Positions 14,939 to 62,343 of a stretch of 64,000 nucleotides of DNA are shown one piece after another. The stretch is taken from positions 7,070,001 through 7,134,000 of the forward strand of contig CM075991.1 of NCBI GenBank assembly GCA_038087875.1, given 5' to 3'. This stretch comes from Malacoraja senta (lineage: Eukaryota). Each line of letters opens with the position of its first letter. Positions within the stretch are counted from its first letter, which is position 1. The translations under genes were made by a program, and so were the position numbers. Under the pieces are notes generated by a model. That model made no database searches, was not told where the DNA came from, and was given only the letters and a program-made list of their open reading frames with translations.

Positions 14939-15583
14939 GTAAGTAAGTAAGTAAGTTTATTGGCCAAGTATTCACATACAAGGAATTTGCCTTGGTGCTC
15001 TGCCCACAAGTAACAACATGACATACAGTGACAGTTACAAATGACTCTGAAAACACTAAACATTAATAATAATAAAACATTAATGATAAAACACCATTGA
15101 TCAAGCATGTGAACCAACAAAATACCAGATCAAAGGGAGGCTACAGATTTTTGGCTGTTGAGTAGAGCAACTACTCGTGGATAAAAACTGTTTTTATGTC
15201 TGGCTGTGGCAGCTTTGACAATCCGGAGACGCCTTCCAGAGGGAAGTGATTCAAAGAGTTTGTGGCCAGGGTGAGAGGGGTCAGAGATGATTTTTCCCGC
15301 TCGCTTCCTGGCCCTTGCAGTGTACAGTTCATCAATGGAGGGAAGGTTGCAGCCAATAAACTTCTCTGCTGATCGGACGATTCGCTGCAGCCTCCAGGTG
15401 TCGTGCTTGGTGGCTGAGCCAAACCAGACCATGATGGAGAAGGTGAGAACAGACTCTACGATGGCCGTGTAGAATTGGACTATCATTGCCTGTGGCAGAT
15501 TGTGCTTTCTCAGCTGCCGTAAGAAGTACATCCTCTGTTGTGCCTTTTTGACTGTGGAGTCGATGGTAGCCCCCCCACTTAAG
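14939..15583 (-). mobile_element. Rex1/Babar-clade LINE 3' fragment (open frame 15130-15531 and upstream)
   Basis: QRMYFLRQLRK..FYTAIVESVLTFSIMVWFG..RLQRIVRSAEK..DPSHPGHKLFESLPSGRR; (ACTT)n tail. Confidence 0.9.
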
Positions 15584-16211
15584 GTGAATATCTTAAAGAT
15601 GTGAATATCTTAAAGATGAGCTGAAATATCTCCACCACTTTGCTCTTCAACCAAAATTTAAATATATTGCTTATACTAAGATAAAATAATGACTTGCACA
15701 GTACAGTAATCTCAGTCCAAGGATGTTATTAGACATTCCACCAGATTCCAGTCCCCTGCTGCATACTCTGATTTATTTTTCAGAATCTCTTCAGTGTGAT
15801 TAATCTCTCTCACTCATGGTGTGTTGACAGAATACCAATCGACATGACAGAATTTGGATAGTTTCAGTTTAGTTTGTGATGAATTAAATGGCAGGTTTCC
15901 AGTGCAGGCTATTATTAAAATTCCAGTCATGCGACCTATAGACATTTGTGTTCTTGATGTACCAGGGACTAGTCTTATCCATGGAGAAACCTGCTACTTT
16001 TGTCGCTGTTTCTCCCCTGCAAGTAAGCAGTAGAGCACAAGGACATACTCAGGTGCAAATCTATGTCACAATGTCTCATGCCTGCTGTGTCATTCAACTA
16101 GATGGTAGGAGATCTGAACTCCACCACTTGCATAGATTCCAAACATCCAGCAACCACAGAGAATTAATCACCTTCTGCGTTGAGAATTGACAATCCTCGA
16201 AAGAAATTTGA

Positions 16212-26728: not shown

Positions 26729-27570
26729 AAAAGCTATCAATTTGGGAAAAAAATTAATTGCAGTTTTCTGCAATAGATTAATATCAATAGTGTATTCACG
26801 TAATGCTGATAGAAATATCATATGAGGAGAATGCTCTATAAGACATTTTACAGTGGCCATAAACAATAAAAGATCGCCATTTCTTTGAGGCTGTTGTATG
26901 GGGTTCATATAGGGAAGATAGACGCAAAATGCTGGAGTAACCCAGTGGGACAGGCAGCATCTCTGGAGAGAAGGAATGGGTGAGGTTTTGGGTTGAGACC
27001 CTTCTTCAGTCTACAGGTTTATATAAGGTATTGTTTTTTTTTTTCAGATTCTGATATTAACTTTCCATATATTGCTCACTTTTTTACTTCACTTTAATTT
27101 CCTATTACTACATTTTATATTGAGAGAATTGATTTTATTCGTGGTGGATATATTGTGCGGCCTACTGTGAGAATTCCAGGCTTATCTTTCAATAGTCTCG
27201 CAAGGATCATTTTCTAGTTCTGAGGCAGTCCCTGAGGATCAAGGTTAGCTTACTTCCGCTGTGGTTTTGTGGTTTCTAAGATGGTTAACAAGGCCATCGA
27301 GGAAACTGTAGATCTTCCACAGATCGGGCATGTGGGTATACTCAGGGCCTATGTGCATGGGCTTGTGGTTCATTTTATCATACCAATTGCTTCATCTGAG
27401 CAGTCAAAGGCTGGGGATTGCCAGGAATCAGTTTCTTCAAAGAGCATCCTTTAATCTTTTCTTCAGTCTACCGGATGGTCTCTCCCTATGCCAGTACCTG
27501 GAATAGATTGGCTGCTTTGGAGTGTGATGTGGAGCCCGTCAAAGTACTGAATGGGTCATGGTTTAATTGT

Positions 27571-30682: not shown

Positions 30683-31522
30683 TTTAGATGACTCTGCAAT
30701 TGTGGGCTGCATCAGGGAGGGGAGGGAAGGTGAATACAGAGATGAAGTCAACAACTTTGTTGAGTGGTGTGAGCTGAATCACCTGCAGCTCAACACCAAC
30801 AAGACTAAGGAGTTGATGGTGGACTTTGGGATGAGAGGAACACCCCTGTCTCCATCAATGGTGTGGATGTGCAGTTAACCAGGGAGTACAAATACTTTGG
30901 AGTGTACCTGGACAGTAAACTGGACTGGTCCAGGAACGCTGAGGCCCTGTACAAGAAGGGACAGAGCCACCTGCACTTTCTGAGGAGGCTCCGCTCTTTC
31001 AATGCCTACAGTAAGATGCTGCAGATGTTCTACCGATCGCTGGTGGCCAGTGCCATCTTCTTCACTGCCGTGTGCTGGGGCAGCATTGCGAAGGTTGCGG
31101 ATGCCAAGAGGATCAACAAACTCATCAGGAAAGGCTGGCTCCGTCCTGGTGGGCAGAGTTGGATTCATGAGAGGTGGGTCTTGGAGGTGAGGATGCTCCT
31201 CAAACTGCAGAGCATCCTGGACAATACAGTTCACCCCCTCCATGACACACTGGTCAACCTGAGGAGCACCTTCAGCAAAAGACTAGTTCCACCAAGATGC
31301 AGCACTTCTTCAAAGTGGCTATCAAACTGTACAACTCCTCCCCCTTCTATCATGGGGTAGACTGAGTCTGACACCCCCCCCCCCCCCCACCCCTCCAATC
31401 TTTGCACATCCCCCAAAGCTTTCCACTCGTCACTTTTATTTCATGTTTCATGTATTTTGTGTTTTTATGACTGTTGGCAAATCAATTTCCCTCGTGGGAT
31501 AAATCTAGTTCTATCGTATCGT
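30683..31522 (+). mobile_element. Rex1/Babar-clade LINE 3' fragment (frameshifted RT)
   Basis: DDSAIVGCI..NHLQLNTNKTKELMVDF; YKYFGVYLDSKLDWS..KKGQSHLHFLRRLRSF; (TCGTA)n tail. Confidence 0.9.
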
Positions 31523-42410: not shown

Positions 42411-42528
42411 GGCGGCACAGTGGCACAGCTGTTTGAACCACTGCCTCACAGAGCCAGAGACCTGGCTTCGATCCTGACCTCGGATGCTGTCTGTGCGGAG
42501 TTTGCATGTTCTACCTGTGACCACGTGT
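42411..42528 (+). mobile_element. HE1-like SINE head (its tail probably at 43514-43536)
   Basis: ggcggcacagtggcacagc..ttcgatcctgacc. Confidence 0.75.
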
Positions 42529-42530
42529 GA

Positions 42531-43424
42531 TTCCTCGAACGTAGCCCCCAGCGATGCATGTTGGCGTTGAACCGGCCGACCCCTGTACGGTGCCGGTTCA
42601 GGGCGACGCACTCTTTGCGGAGCAGGTCCAAGCCGGGTGGGGCTGTGGTGTTCGGTGCAACAGTGAATTACAGAGGTCGTGAAGTCTGTTCCCAGCTAGT
42701 TCTCCATGCTCCTCGTGTGTTGAAACCGGAGCCACACAGGGTCGCTGCGTGATGGGAGAAGGGGCGACGAGATGACAGGCGTTGAGGTCCTGGGCAAGGT
42801 GGTGCAAAGGATGTTTGGAATCCGATGGGGCCTTGCACACCAGCCTGTGGGTGAAGTACTCTCTGCGAAGCTTGGCGGGTGCAACACCTGCGAGCACCGG
42901 CAGAAGATCCGTCGGAGTGGGGCGTAGGCAGCCGGTGATGATCCGCAAGGTGTCGTTGAGGATGGTGCCTAGCTTGCTAGTATGAGCGCTGCTGCACCAT
43001 GCTGGGGCGGTGTACTCAGCGGCGCTGTACACGCGTGCAAGAGCACTGGTTCGGAGATTAGATGTCCTGCCGTCCCATGATGATCCAGCCAAGCAACGCA
43101 GGGGGTTGTTCCGCGCCGAGACTTTAGCATGGAGAGCTTCCAGGTGTTGCTTGTAGGTCAGCTGCCGATCTAGTTTCACCACGAGGTATGTAGGAAATGG
43201 GTTATAGGGTAGGGGTGACCCATTGACGGTGACGGTTAACTGGCGTTGAGCTTCCTTGTTGTTCAGGTGAAAGGCCGTTGTGGTGGTTTTTGCCACACTC
43301 AGTTTTAGTCTCCAGGTCCTAAGGTAGCCCGCGACAAGTTCCATATCCGCCGAGAGCACATCGTCCACGTTTGTCCAACTCCTGTCCGAATGCAGTCGGG
43401 CCAGGTCATCTGCGTCTCCATACT
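42531..43424 (-). mobile_element. Vingi/Ingi-like LINE fragment (RT motif C to C-terminal region)
   Basis: ADDLA..YLRTWRLKLSVAKTTTTAFHLNNKEA..LDRQLTYKQHL..LAGSSW..LRTSALA.VYSAAEY.APAW..ITGCLRPTP; LNRHRTGVGRF; GC-rich. Confidence 0.8.
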
Positions 43425-43490
43425 GGCTCATGTTGTCGACCTCCCCGTGGTGAGCCCTGTCAACTGACCTCAGTCAGGCGAGCGACAACA
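43425..43490 (+). ncRNA. HDV/CPEB3-like ribozyme fold (5'-clipped, probably decayed)
   Basis: P1 GGCTC/GAGCC(CT); P2 TGTTGTCG/CGACAACA; P3 ACC/GGT; L3 TCCCCGT; P4 CTGAC/GTCAG; J4/2 CGAG; all in canonical order. Confidence 0.75.
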
Positions 43491-43855
43491 AGCAGAGGCA
43501 GCCGCAGAAATACAACTAAACTAAACTAAACTAAACACATTGTAGCCGAAGGAACAAAACAAATGAATAATTGGACTAGAATATAGACCAACATAATATT
43601 GACATCATTTTGAATTCCACCATAATGGTTGACAGCGTTTAAATTCAATAAATCAGGAATGGATAACTGGAGTTGGTGACTTTATCTTGCACTAATGTTA
43701 TTCCCTTTATCCTGTATCTGTATAGTGCGGGTGGCTTGATTGTAATCATGTGTGGACTTTCTGCTGACTAGATGACAGACAACAAAAAAGCTCTTCACCT
43801 TTACCTCAACTAAACTAAACCCATCTGGTTTGTCAATGTCCTTCAGTGACCCTGG

Positions 43856-61284: not shown

Positions 61285-62343
61285 ATGAGTAAATTGACTC
61301 CAGCTGTGAGCCCTCAGAGAGCTGTGAATAAACTGTCGAAACAGTTCGAAATTGAAGTTACCTCTGAAGTCTCTGAAGTGGCTGCAGAAATGGATACAAG
61401 ATCTAAGAAAGACTTTGATGACTTGAAAAAATCAATGAAAAATTTGAAAGATGAGATCTCGGATAATAGGGTGGAAGATAAGAAGGAAATGAAGGAAAAT
61501 TCGGCAAAAATGATGGAAGGAATGCAGAAGATGATGAAGGATTTAAATGCTGGTAACCAGAAGAATATGACGGATTTACTGGACACTATGAATAAACGAA
61601 TTGATGAGGTGAAAGATGGACTATCAGAGAAAATGGATAAGATGGATGTAATTACTACGGATAAGTTCACGGCTGTACTTGAAACAGTAGCTGCAAGTAT
61701 GCAGACAATCACGGAATTGGAGAAAAATACGGCACGACTGGTTGAAGACATGGCGAAATTGAGGCAAGAACATGAGCAAATGAGGCGAGAAAACGAACAA
61801 GCATCACTACAAATGGGGACTCAATTAGAGAAAGTCTCATTCAAATGCCTGGACCTGGAAGCTCGTTCTAGACGCCAGAATCTGAGGATTCTTGGTGTTT
61901 CAGAGGGGGCAGAAGGGGAACAGGTACGTGAATTTGCCATGGGCTTGTTGAATCTTCCCAAGGAACCGAAAATCGAAGTGGCTCATCGTGTCCCAAGATT
62001 TGGAAAAAGATTTGATGCGGGAAAAGCTTATCCACGACATATTATAGTGAAATTTCGAGACACTGCAGAACTGGAATATGTTATGACCCATATCAAATAT
62101 GGTGTACAATTACGGCTGGACAAAGACACTATTAAGATATTCAGGGACTACCCACATGAAATTGTGCAAAAAAGAAACAAATTTGATAAGGTTAAAGATC
62201 TTTTAAGAGGGAGAGAAGGGGTCAGATTCGGGGTTTTTTATCCCGCTAAAATGCGTATTTCTTTTAATGGTCTTGAAAAGTCATTTGTTAAGCCTGAAGA
62301 CGCTTTCAAATATGCCCAAACGATTGTTGAAAGACAGAAATAA
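61285..62343 (+). CDS. L1 ORF1p (coiled coil + RRM + CTD, Transposase_22-like), 352 aa
   Basis: long heptad-rich region, then DLEARSRRQNLRILGVSEG, IEVAHRV, PRHIIVKF, IFRDYP, YPAKMRI. Confidence 0.92.
   Translation: MSKLTPAVSPQRAVNKLSKQFEIEVTSEVSEVAAEMDTRSKKDFDDLKKSMKNLKDEISDNRVEDKKEMKENSAKMMEGMQKMMKDLNAGNQKNMTDLLDTMNKRIDEVKDGLSEKMDKMDVITTDKFTAVLETVAASMQTITELEKNTARLVEDMAKLRQEHEQMRRENEQASLQMGTQLEKVSFKCLDLEARSRRQNLRILGVSEGAEGEQVREFAMGLLNLPKEPKIEVAHRVPRFGKRFDAGKAYPRHIIVKFRDTAELEYVMTHIKYGVQLRLDKDTIKIFRDYPHEIVQKRNKFDKVKDLLRGREGVRFGVFYPAKMRISFNGLEKSFVKPEDAFKYAQTIVERQK

Follow-up and report, generated by a model that had tools for sequence, protein, structure and literature searches.

Positions 43425 to 43490 (+ strand) of the window, by which we mean the whole 64,000-nucleotide stretch of the Malacoraja senta genome that was analyzed, raise the question of whether a ribozyme fold is encoded there, to which element it belongs, and how it came to lie beside the remains of a LINE. 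A sequence-only reading had proposed an HDV/CPEB3-like self-cleaving ribozyme fold attached to a Vingi-like LINE. The best explanation, in which we place considerable confidence, is that the locus is the damaged and inverted 5' end of a Vingi-type LINE, the head of which is predicted to fold as an HDV-like ribozyme.

The window copy displays the nested double-pseudoknot layout of the HDV-like ribozymes at the level of sequence and pair table, and corresponds to positions 3 to 68 of the head. Of the 7 nucleotides in the 5' strand of P1, 5 are left (43425 to 43429), all of which form Watson-Crick pairs with 43452 to 43456 in the P1' strand (43452 to 43458). A single J1/2 nucleotide (43430) is followed by P2, in which 43431 to 43438 pair with 43483 to 43490 at 8 of 8 positions, and by P3, in which 43439 to 43441 pair with 43449 to 43451 at 3 of 3 positions. 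The latter helix encloses a 7-nt L3 (43442 to 43448) that contains the equivalents of U20, C22, and G25. The segment 43459 to 43478 consists of the P1.1 strand GT (43459 to 43460), which offers a single possible pair, a CAA linker, and the hairpin of the 5-bp P4 (43464 to 43468 with 43473 to 43477). It is followed by J4/2 (43479 to 43482), where C43479 occupies the position of the catalytic C (C75 in HDV) and G43482 replaces the A of the family. Each pairing and part of the fold described previously was thus recovered at its place, as was the absence of the first 2 P1 bases, GG: the bases at the place of G1-G2, 43423 to 43424, belong to the LINE body and are unpaired. In total, 16 of the 18 pairs in P1 to P3 are formed in the window copy, compared to 18 of 18 in an intact copy, L207 (1499 to 1566).

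The results of the structural searches were mixed. A strict descriptor, written post hoc with the motif already seen, matched the 43425 site and no other on either strand of the 64-kb window, and had no match in 300 Markov-simulated windows. A looser descriptor was discarded because it gave many chance matches, including 8 rows at 2 unrelated sites in the window, and only those of its matches that were confirmed by a model were used. The whole window contained no Rfam match at the gathering threshold, and the best match of the window copy below it was to HDV-F-prausnitzii (RF02682), with 19.7 bits against a cut-off of 44 (E 0.18). The intact copy L207 also remained under this cut-off (32.8 of 44 bits), and neither of the two matched the CPEB3 ribozyme model, RF00622. 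By score, the window copy and L207 are not members of RF00622 or RF02682. With a covariance model built from 7 foreign heads, 43423 to 43490 scored 10.5 bits (E 2), the third of 6 matches in the window. Nested folding of the single strand, which is unable to represent a pseudoknot, was not significant at the site (z = -1.63; 15 of 200 shuffles were equally good).

The stretch is repeated in the 1.94-Gb host genome. An initial search with 87 nt gave 732 candidates, 40 of which were scored, and all of these matched at 94% to 100%. The first 40 nt occurred exactly 92 times, of which 66 were on scaffolds C1 to C19 and 26 on small contigs, whereas the reversed control had no occurrence. For the analysis of copies, we used the 64 scaffold copies that remain when the window copy and its duplicate are set aside; L225 and L226 share flanks. 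Position 1 was a G in 59 of the 64 copies and position 2 was a G in 62, both positions lying outside the 40-nt search pattern, while the upstream positions -1 to -6 contained mixed bases. The expectation that the family would begin with GG upstream of an ORF was therefore correct, and the head is in sense with the endonuclease/RT ORF. A 3' tail was detected in 40 of the 64 copies, and 35 of those 40 were flanked by target-site duplications of at least 8 nt. Searched with shifts of up to 3 nt and one mismatch, the duplication ended exactly before G1 in 19 of the 35 cases and within 1 nt of it in 27. Furthermore, public contigs that represent the empty site of the high-copy repeat hosting L207 part from L207 directly before G1. 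Since HDV-like ribozymes cut before the first base of P1 (PMC4908430), the element begins at the very nucleotide where such ribozymes cut. We conclude that 43425 to 43490 is almost certainly the head, that is, the 5' terminus, of a LINE family.

The core bases listed for HDV-like ribozymes (PMC6326823) are largely retained in these copies. The C at the catalytic position was kept in 52 of the 64 copies and replaced by T, at a CpG, in 8, and both A positions of J4/2 that follow it were A in 63 copies. J4/2 was CGAA in 43 of the 64 copies and CGAG in none, so the G at the end of J4/2, which the earlier reading had noted as a departure from a conserved A, is a private change of the window copy. 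G1 sits opposite a U in the family.

A natural copy, L044, is about 3.03 kb long, starting with the head and ending in a (GAA)n tail, and contains a single ORF. The head is in sense with this ORF, as it also is in L058 and L060. The broken ORF frames matched the Pfam families Exo_endo_phos and RVT_1, and no intact ORF was seen among the host's own copies. Intact relatives, of which 120 of 137 were listed, encode APE-RT proteins of 911 to 1114 amino acids, mostly on contigs of 3.0 to 3.8 kb. No RNase H domain was found in the family's own frames, in the proteins P0001 and P0114, or among the domains of the 120 listed relatives. A Pfam search with the 291-aa frame of the window gave no family, and the PDB contained no close relative of the element protein, only R2 RTs. 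Vingi elements have been described as compact single-ORF LINEs with APE and RT domains and without RNase H (PMC13708176). An RT tree with 33 rows placed the host's copies beside P0001, whose cluster holds sea-urchin proteins, and within a clade with 99/99 support that also contains proteins from Anolis, Strongylocentrotus, and Branchiostoma; the own RT falls in the sister subclade to the Anolis, sea-urchin, and lancelet proteins. The tree has no rows labelled Vingi, Ingi, or L1Tc. The family is likely a Vingi-type LINE, a name that relies on the architecture and the relatives rather than on a tree with named references.

Short derivatives are abundant. In 48 of the 64 dispersed heads, the head and the 3' tail are combined in direct order into a non-autonomous element of about 200 bp, in which approximately positions 1 to 190 are joined to the last 25 to 75 nt. 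According to section 23 of PMC5786205, bipartite non-autonomous LINEs have been reported from no groups other than RTE, Ingi, Vingi, and R2.

A few observations on copies and relatives are recorded here in their own right. The closest intact protein, in the P0001 cluster, is 69% identical to L060 over the RT half and clusters with proteins of Diadema antillarum, which may reflect horizontal transfer between an echinoderm and the host. Related LINE proteins of 26% to 42% identity are encoded on short contigs of GTDB MAGs, both archaeal and bacterial (L143 to L145 and L146 to L149); these contigs are probably eukaryotic DNA that was binned into the MAGs. An amplified unit is present on many small contigs (L005 to L017, L021 to L023, L058, L060, and L310, with 40 places listed) and contains 2 nested element copies behind similar AT-rich flanks. 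The first nested copy is without P4-J4/2-P2', via a deletion between 2 short direct repeats. This head was considered as a test of the need for catalysis and rejected, because the copies share flanks in the amplified unit and are not independent insertions.

To examine the conservation of the fold beyond the host, we used a scan of metagenome contigs, and from its 535 related stretches the top 80 were included. Among these, 21 stretches hold the N-terminus of the ORF together with upstream DNA (18 distinct). The model built from 7 foreign heads matched 13 of the 21 loci (10 of the 18 distinct), always upstream of the ORF and in sense, although these matches represent 3 families only and 7 of them are the model's own training sequences. 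The same model also matched 3 inverted heads and nothing further in 92 sources. The remaining 8 of the 21 foreign loci and all 5 own-genome loci were unmatched; the model is too sequence-specific to find the own copies. No head was gained from 53 GTDB loci, all of which were searched by descriptor and 7 by model. It was also noted that the region upstream of position 459 in L069, a relative from the group of the Anolis protein, has by eye an HDV-like layout with a 5-nt L3 that the model missed.

The helices have changed in sequence while remaining paired. In the 7-sequence foreign alignment, 13 of the 24 pairs had changed on both sides, a value reached by none of 500 shuffles, and the unshifted structure was paired at 91.5%, compared to 42% to 50% for slid structures; the set is small, and related sequences inflate the statistic. 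A comparison of the host family with its relatives was performed on structure-anchored natural copies, since MAFFT misaligned the 3' half of the own family. Between L207 and L130, 18 of 18 pairs in P1 to P3 were kept in both, 11 of which had changed on both sides. L207 and L100 shared 17 of 18 pairs, as did L207 and L112, with 10 and 9 pairs changed on both sides, respectively. The bases that are invariant across the families are U20, C22, and G25 in L3, the C and A of J4/2, and the G1 wobble. In the family, the order P1, P2, P3, P1.1, P4 and the catalytic-core residues of HDV-like ribozymes were all present. Chance complementarity could explain why no Rfam gathering match was obtained and why the nested fold has so modest a z-score, but it would have to account for the empty simulated windows, the exact coincidence with the element starts, and the covariation among families, and we regard it as hardly credible.

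Named Vingi families carry comparable heads. For this comparison we used Vingi-2_Gav, Vingi-4_Crp, Vingi-2_SPur, Vingi-1_BF, and Vingi-1_Acar. The same HDV-like layout could be read by eye in Vingi-2_Gav, Vingi-4_Crp, Vingi-2_SPur, and Vingi-1_BF in the supplement of PMC5786205, where the printed 5' segments cover nt 2 to 74, 1 to 64, 395 to 451, and 8 to 69, respectively. The host family resembles LINEs of the Vingi clade in its single ORF, its APE and RT domains, its lack of RNase H, and its bipartite copies (PMC5786205, PMC13708176), but differs in the sequence of its head from the CPEB3-like heads of the named families.

Taken as a family, the heads are, in our assessment, quite probably active self-cleaving ribozymes, as predicted from their structure. 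In the mechanism that we propose, host transcripts that read through into the element would be cut co-transcriptionally on the 5' side of G1, with C57 (window position 43479) as the general acid, a step that draws on what is known of the HDV family (PMC6326823, PMC4035085). In the HDV ribozyme, C75 is catalytic and A77-A78 help to position it (PMC6326823). Cleavage would leave all element RNAs with an identical start regardless of the upstream sequence. The element's protein probably binds the folded head as well.

The fold could instead be real but have another main task, whether as an internal promoter, as a site for protein binding, or as a protective structure at the 5' end, with G1 set by the start of transcription. 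An internal promoter could give equally precise starts, as Pr77 does in L1Tc (PMC4035085), and the head of L1Tc/ingi is both promoter and ribozyme (PMC4035085, PMC8256844), so that the 2 roles do not exclude each other. The head-plus-tail elements and the head-anchored inversions described below suggest that a protein grips the head, which would suit a binding site. The J1/2 of just 1 nt also fits a role other than cleavage, as a 1-nt J1/2 spacer almost abolished activity in Agam-2 constructs (PMC4908430); the Rfam consensus of the CPEB3 ribozyme has a similarly short spacer. Against this, the residues that are conserved across families are those of the catalytic core, and the helices vary in sequence yet stay paired, which a DNA promoter would not need. 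We therefore consider a mainly non-catalytic role to be improbable and favor the ribozyme.

A close parallel is L1TcRz/Pr77 of the trypanosome elements L1Tc and ingi, which is likewise an HDV-like fold in the first 70 nt or so of an Ingi-group LINE of the APE type (PMC4035085). There, too, the cut site is at the first base of the element, and the fold is common to the short deleted elements NARTc and RIME (PMC4035085, PMC3185411). By analogy, the head may work like L1TcRz. The family studied here differs in its animal host, in being without RNase H, in its length of about 3.0 kb, in its recurrent inverted heads, and in that its ribozyme is predicted.

The arrangement at the locus itself is more complex than a LINE with its 5' end attached. 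An inverted head at 43425 to 43519 (+), corresponding to reference positions 3 to 97, contains the ribozyme and a CAA-rich linker and is antisense to the body. The body at 42537 to 43425 (-) is truncated at both its 5' and 3' ends, corresponds to reference positions 1941 to 2844, and covers the last part of the RT together with the C-terminal region; it is about 90% identical to L044. The head is joined to the body at the head's 5' end, and one base at the junction is common to both. The assignment of the stretch to the 5' end of the adjacent Vingi-like family was accordingly right as to the 5' end, but the head is inverted relative to the adjoining body on the (-) strand. The 5' part of a host SINE lies at 42411 to 42535 (+), directly against the truncated 3' end of the body, and is 78% identical to a second SINE copy in the window. 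On the other side, a (CTAAA)n run at 43515 to 43536 (+) has 3 to 4 nt in common with the beginning of the inverted head, and is likely both the tail of that host SINE and the insertion target.

To estimate how often heads are inverted, we used a 24-nt pattern near the 3' end of the element, which has 155 exact matches in the genome; 95 of the first 100 were examined and represent 89 distinct loci (6 duplicate pairs), a sampling that misses diverged copies. The 89 loci included 5 inverted heads (L306, L332, L348, the window copy, and L286, which is the same as L054) and 2 internal inversions (L327 and L307/L309), with L272 left out of the inversion classes. Further inverted heads were L046, from an RT search, and L004, from a head search and therefore biased. 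The head itself is flipped in 7 of the 9 inversions seen in the genome. The flipped pieces have their outer ends at positions 88, 88, 93, 95, 97, 99, and 302 and their inner ends at positions 1 to 20, so that 6 of the 7 outer ends lie at positions 88 to 99. Inverted heads of the same layout were also observed in L079, L109, and L112, which belong to another family. The median truncation position of the pattern-sampled copies is 2359, and by our own arithmetic uniform priming would put about 4% of the events in the first 100 nt, where 3 of the 6 pattern-sampled inversions start when the window copy is excluded. Target-site duplications of 11 to 13 nt enclose both head and body in L004, L332, L348, and L046 (4 of 6 testable copies), and none was found for L306 or L054.

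We consider twin priming to be the likely origin of the window copy. Synthesis from the first nicked strand would have begun at the RNA's 3' end and proceeded as far as about position 1941. The other nicked strand would have annealed by 3 to 4 nt to the single-stranded CAA-rich linker behind P2, at about position 97, and then copied the head up to the 5' terminus of that RNA. Joining of the 2 cDNA ends over the 1-nt microhomology would have removed G1-G2. The last 180 nt or so of the body and part of the host SINE may have been deleted later or may never have been copied. The preference for the head could be accounted for if the folded head is kept close to the second nick by the element protein.

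In human L1, twin-priming inversions similarly comprise an inverted 5' segment and a non-inverted 3' segment inside one duplication, with microhomologies (PMC2912911, PMC4245944). The inversions studied here differ in that the element is not an L1 and that the flipped piece is the extreme 5' head, located 0.8 to 2.7 kb from the truncation point. L1 inversions usually adjoin the breakpoint. It could therefore be argued that the head is a ribozyme but that the inversion came about otherwise, by a switch of template, either to an antisense RNA or to a second one, by fold-back of the cDNA, or by rearrangement after insertion. The gap between flipped segment and body, unlike the adjacent inversion of L307, is in line with this, as are the additional 3' truncation of the window copy, which makes further rearrangement possible, and the near confinement of 5' inversions to human L1 in cell assays (PMC4245944). 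However, the single duplication that encloses head and body in the own copies listed above indicates that the inversion came with the insertion. Moreover, an outer end at 88 to 99, an inner end at or near G1, and junction homologies of 0 to 3 nt are what is expected from twin priming, and the model predicts the geometry of the inverted segment as seen (PMC2912911). We thus find the other routes unlikely and retain twin priming as the preferred explanation.

The window copy is very probably inactive, as the earlier reading had warned it might be, because the G1.U pair has been lost and an A has been changed to G in J4/2; changes of G1 lower the activity of the CPEB3 ribozyme (PMC8233481). If it had been kept as a working ribozyme of the host, like the one in the CPEB3 intron, the intact state of all 16 remaining P1, P2, and P3 pairs and of C43479 would be easily understood. 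Yet such a role is very improbable given the missing G1-G2 and the private change in J4/2. The copy has also diverged by about 5% to 10%, like its siblings, and no host gene was identified over the site. What is left at 43425 is, in our interpretation, a decaying copy.

Several other features of the window and of the broken copies were noted. There may be a breakpoint hot spot before the C-terminal Cys motif, since the window body ends at reference position 2844, the copy in the amplified unit ends at 2846, and the body of L004 starts at 2839 (breakpoint sites at window 42537, L058:1392, L060:7659, and L004:1584). Window positions 27555 to 62891 are repeated about 61.2 kb further on with 98.8% to 99.9% identity over at least 35 kb, including the 43425 locus (C15; L261 to L264, L001), and this repeat reflects either tandem duplication in the recent past or a haplotype that was not collapsed. 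At 61285 to 62343 (+), the window contains an uninterrupted ORF of 352 amino acids that is similar to LINE-1 ORF1p (PDB 2ykp, E 1.7e-06) and appears to be the start of a young L1-type element. Frames with an ALKBH8_N domain were found at 15130 to 15609 (-) and 30809 to 31360 (+); they probably derive from the 3' part of a different LINE family, because the same domain ends an RT frame of 1101 amino acids in L059:5663-8965.

The relatives of the host family connect these heads to the CPEB3 ribozyme. The head of L130 (3263 to 3336; an identical locus is present in L131 and L132) scored 55.6 bits against the RF00622 cut-off of 35 (E 1.9e-12), and lies 238 nt upstream of its ORF match. By eye, the part of Vingi-2_Gav spanning P1 through the P4 base is identical to the RF00622 consensus at 38 of 40 positions, and the part spanning the P4 end through P2' at 14 of 14, which makes 52 of 54 core positions with the interior of P4 excluded. 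The middle of the alligator SINE2-1_AMi was also seen to resemble the CPEB3 consensus. Because the helices are free to change, as is evident from L207 and L130, the identity between Vingi-2_Gav and CPEB3 argues for descent rather than convergence. The CPEB3 ribozyme has been reported only in mammals (PMC8233481), and the human genome is listed as containing a fossil Vingi family (PMC5753468). With CPEB3-like heads in distant Vingi hosts, an origin from Vingi is the simplest direction, and the comparison of sequences suggests that mammals domesticated a Vingi head as their CPEB3 ribozyme.

The CPEB3 ribozyme shares with the heads a 7-bp P1 with a G1.U pair, a very short J1/2, a 7-nt L3, a single GU pair in P1.1, and CGAA in J4/2 (PMC8233481). 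The helices at the window locus have other sequences, and CPEB3 is a single conserved intronic copy, whereas the window family is a decaying mobile repeat. Among the papers found, which covered the key ribozyme surveys only in part, none calls the CPEB3 ribozyme Vingi-derived, and the words "retrotranspos", "origin", and "transposable" do not occur in PMC8233481. We hold it to be somewhat better than an even chance that 3 propositions are true jointly: that the Vingi clade starts with HDV-like ribozymes, that a head held by the protein gives rise to the backward copies, and that the CPEB3 ribozyme of mammals, which is linked to memory, is the domesticated 5' end of a Vingi element inserted long ago.

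Vingi is not among the six LINE clades that PMC5786205 names as bearing ribozymes, nor was a ribozyme tied to Vingi in the literature passages found. HDV-like ribozymes have been described before from sea urchin and lancelet (PMC8256844). These may be identical with the heads discussed here, so the occurrence of ribozymes on Vingi elements may be partly anticipated.

The findings extend a device known from R2, RTE, and L1Tc/ingi to a vertebrate family of the Vingi type, for which the genomic support for the predicted cut site is precise. The head-anchored inversions offer a fossil readout of where the 5' terminus of the RNA was located during integration and, if the explanation is true, represent a form of twin priming outside L1 that is anchored in the head. 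Vingi-1 is under development as an RNA-only tool for gene insertion in which the native 5' UTR is kept (PMC13708176), and self-cleavage of that 5' UTR and inverted-head by-products are testable questions of design and safety for this tool. Finally, the near-identical heads in crocodilians, sea urchin, lancelet, and a metagenome contig would provide the CPEB3 ribozyme with an origin, and living Vingi heads, if this is true, would be the outgroups that studies of CPEB3 have so far lacked.
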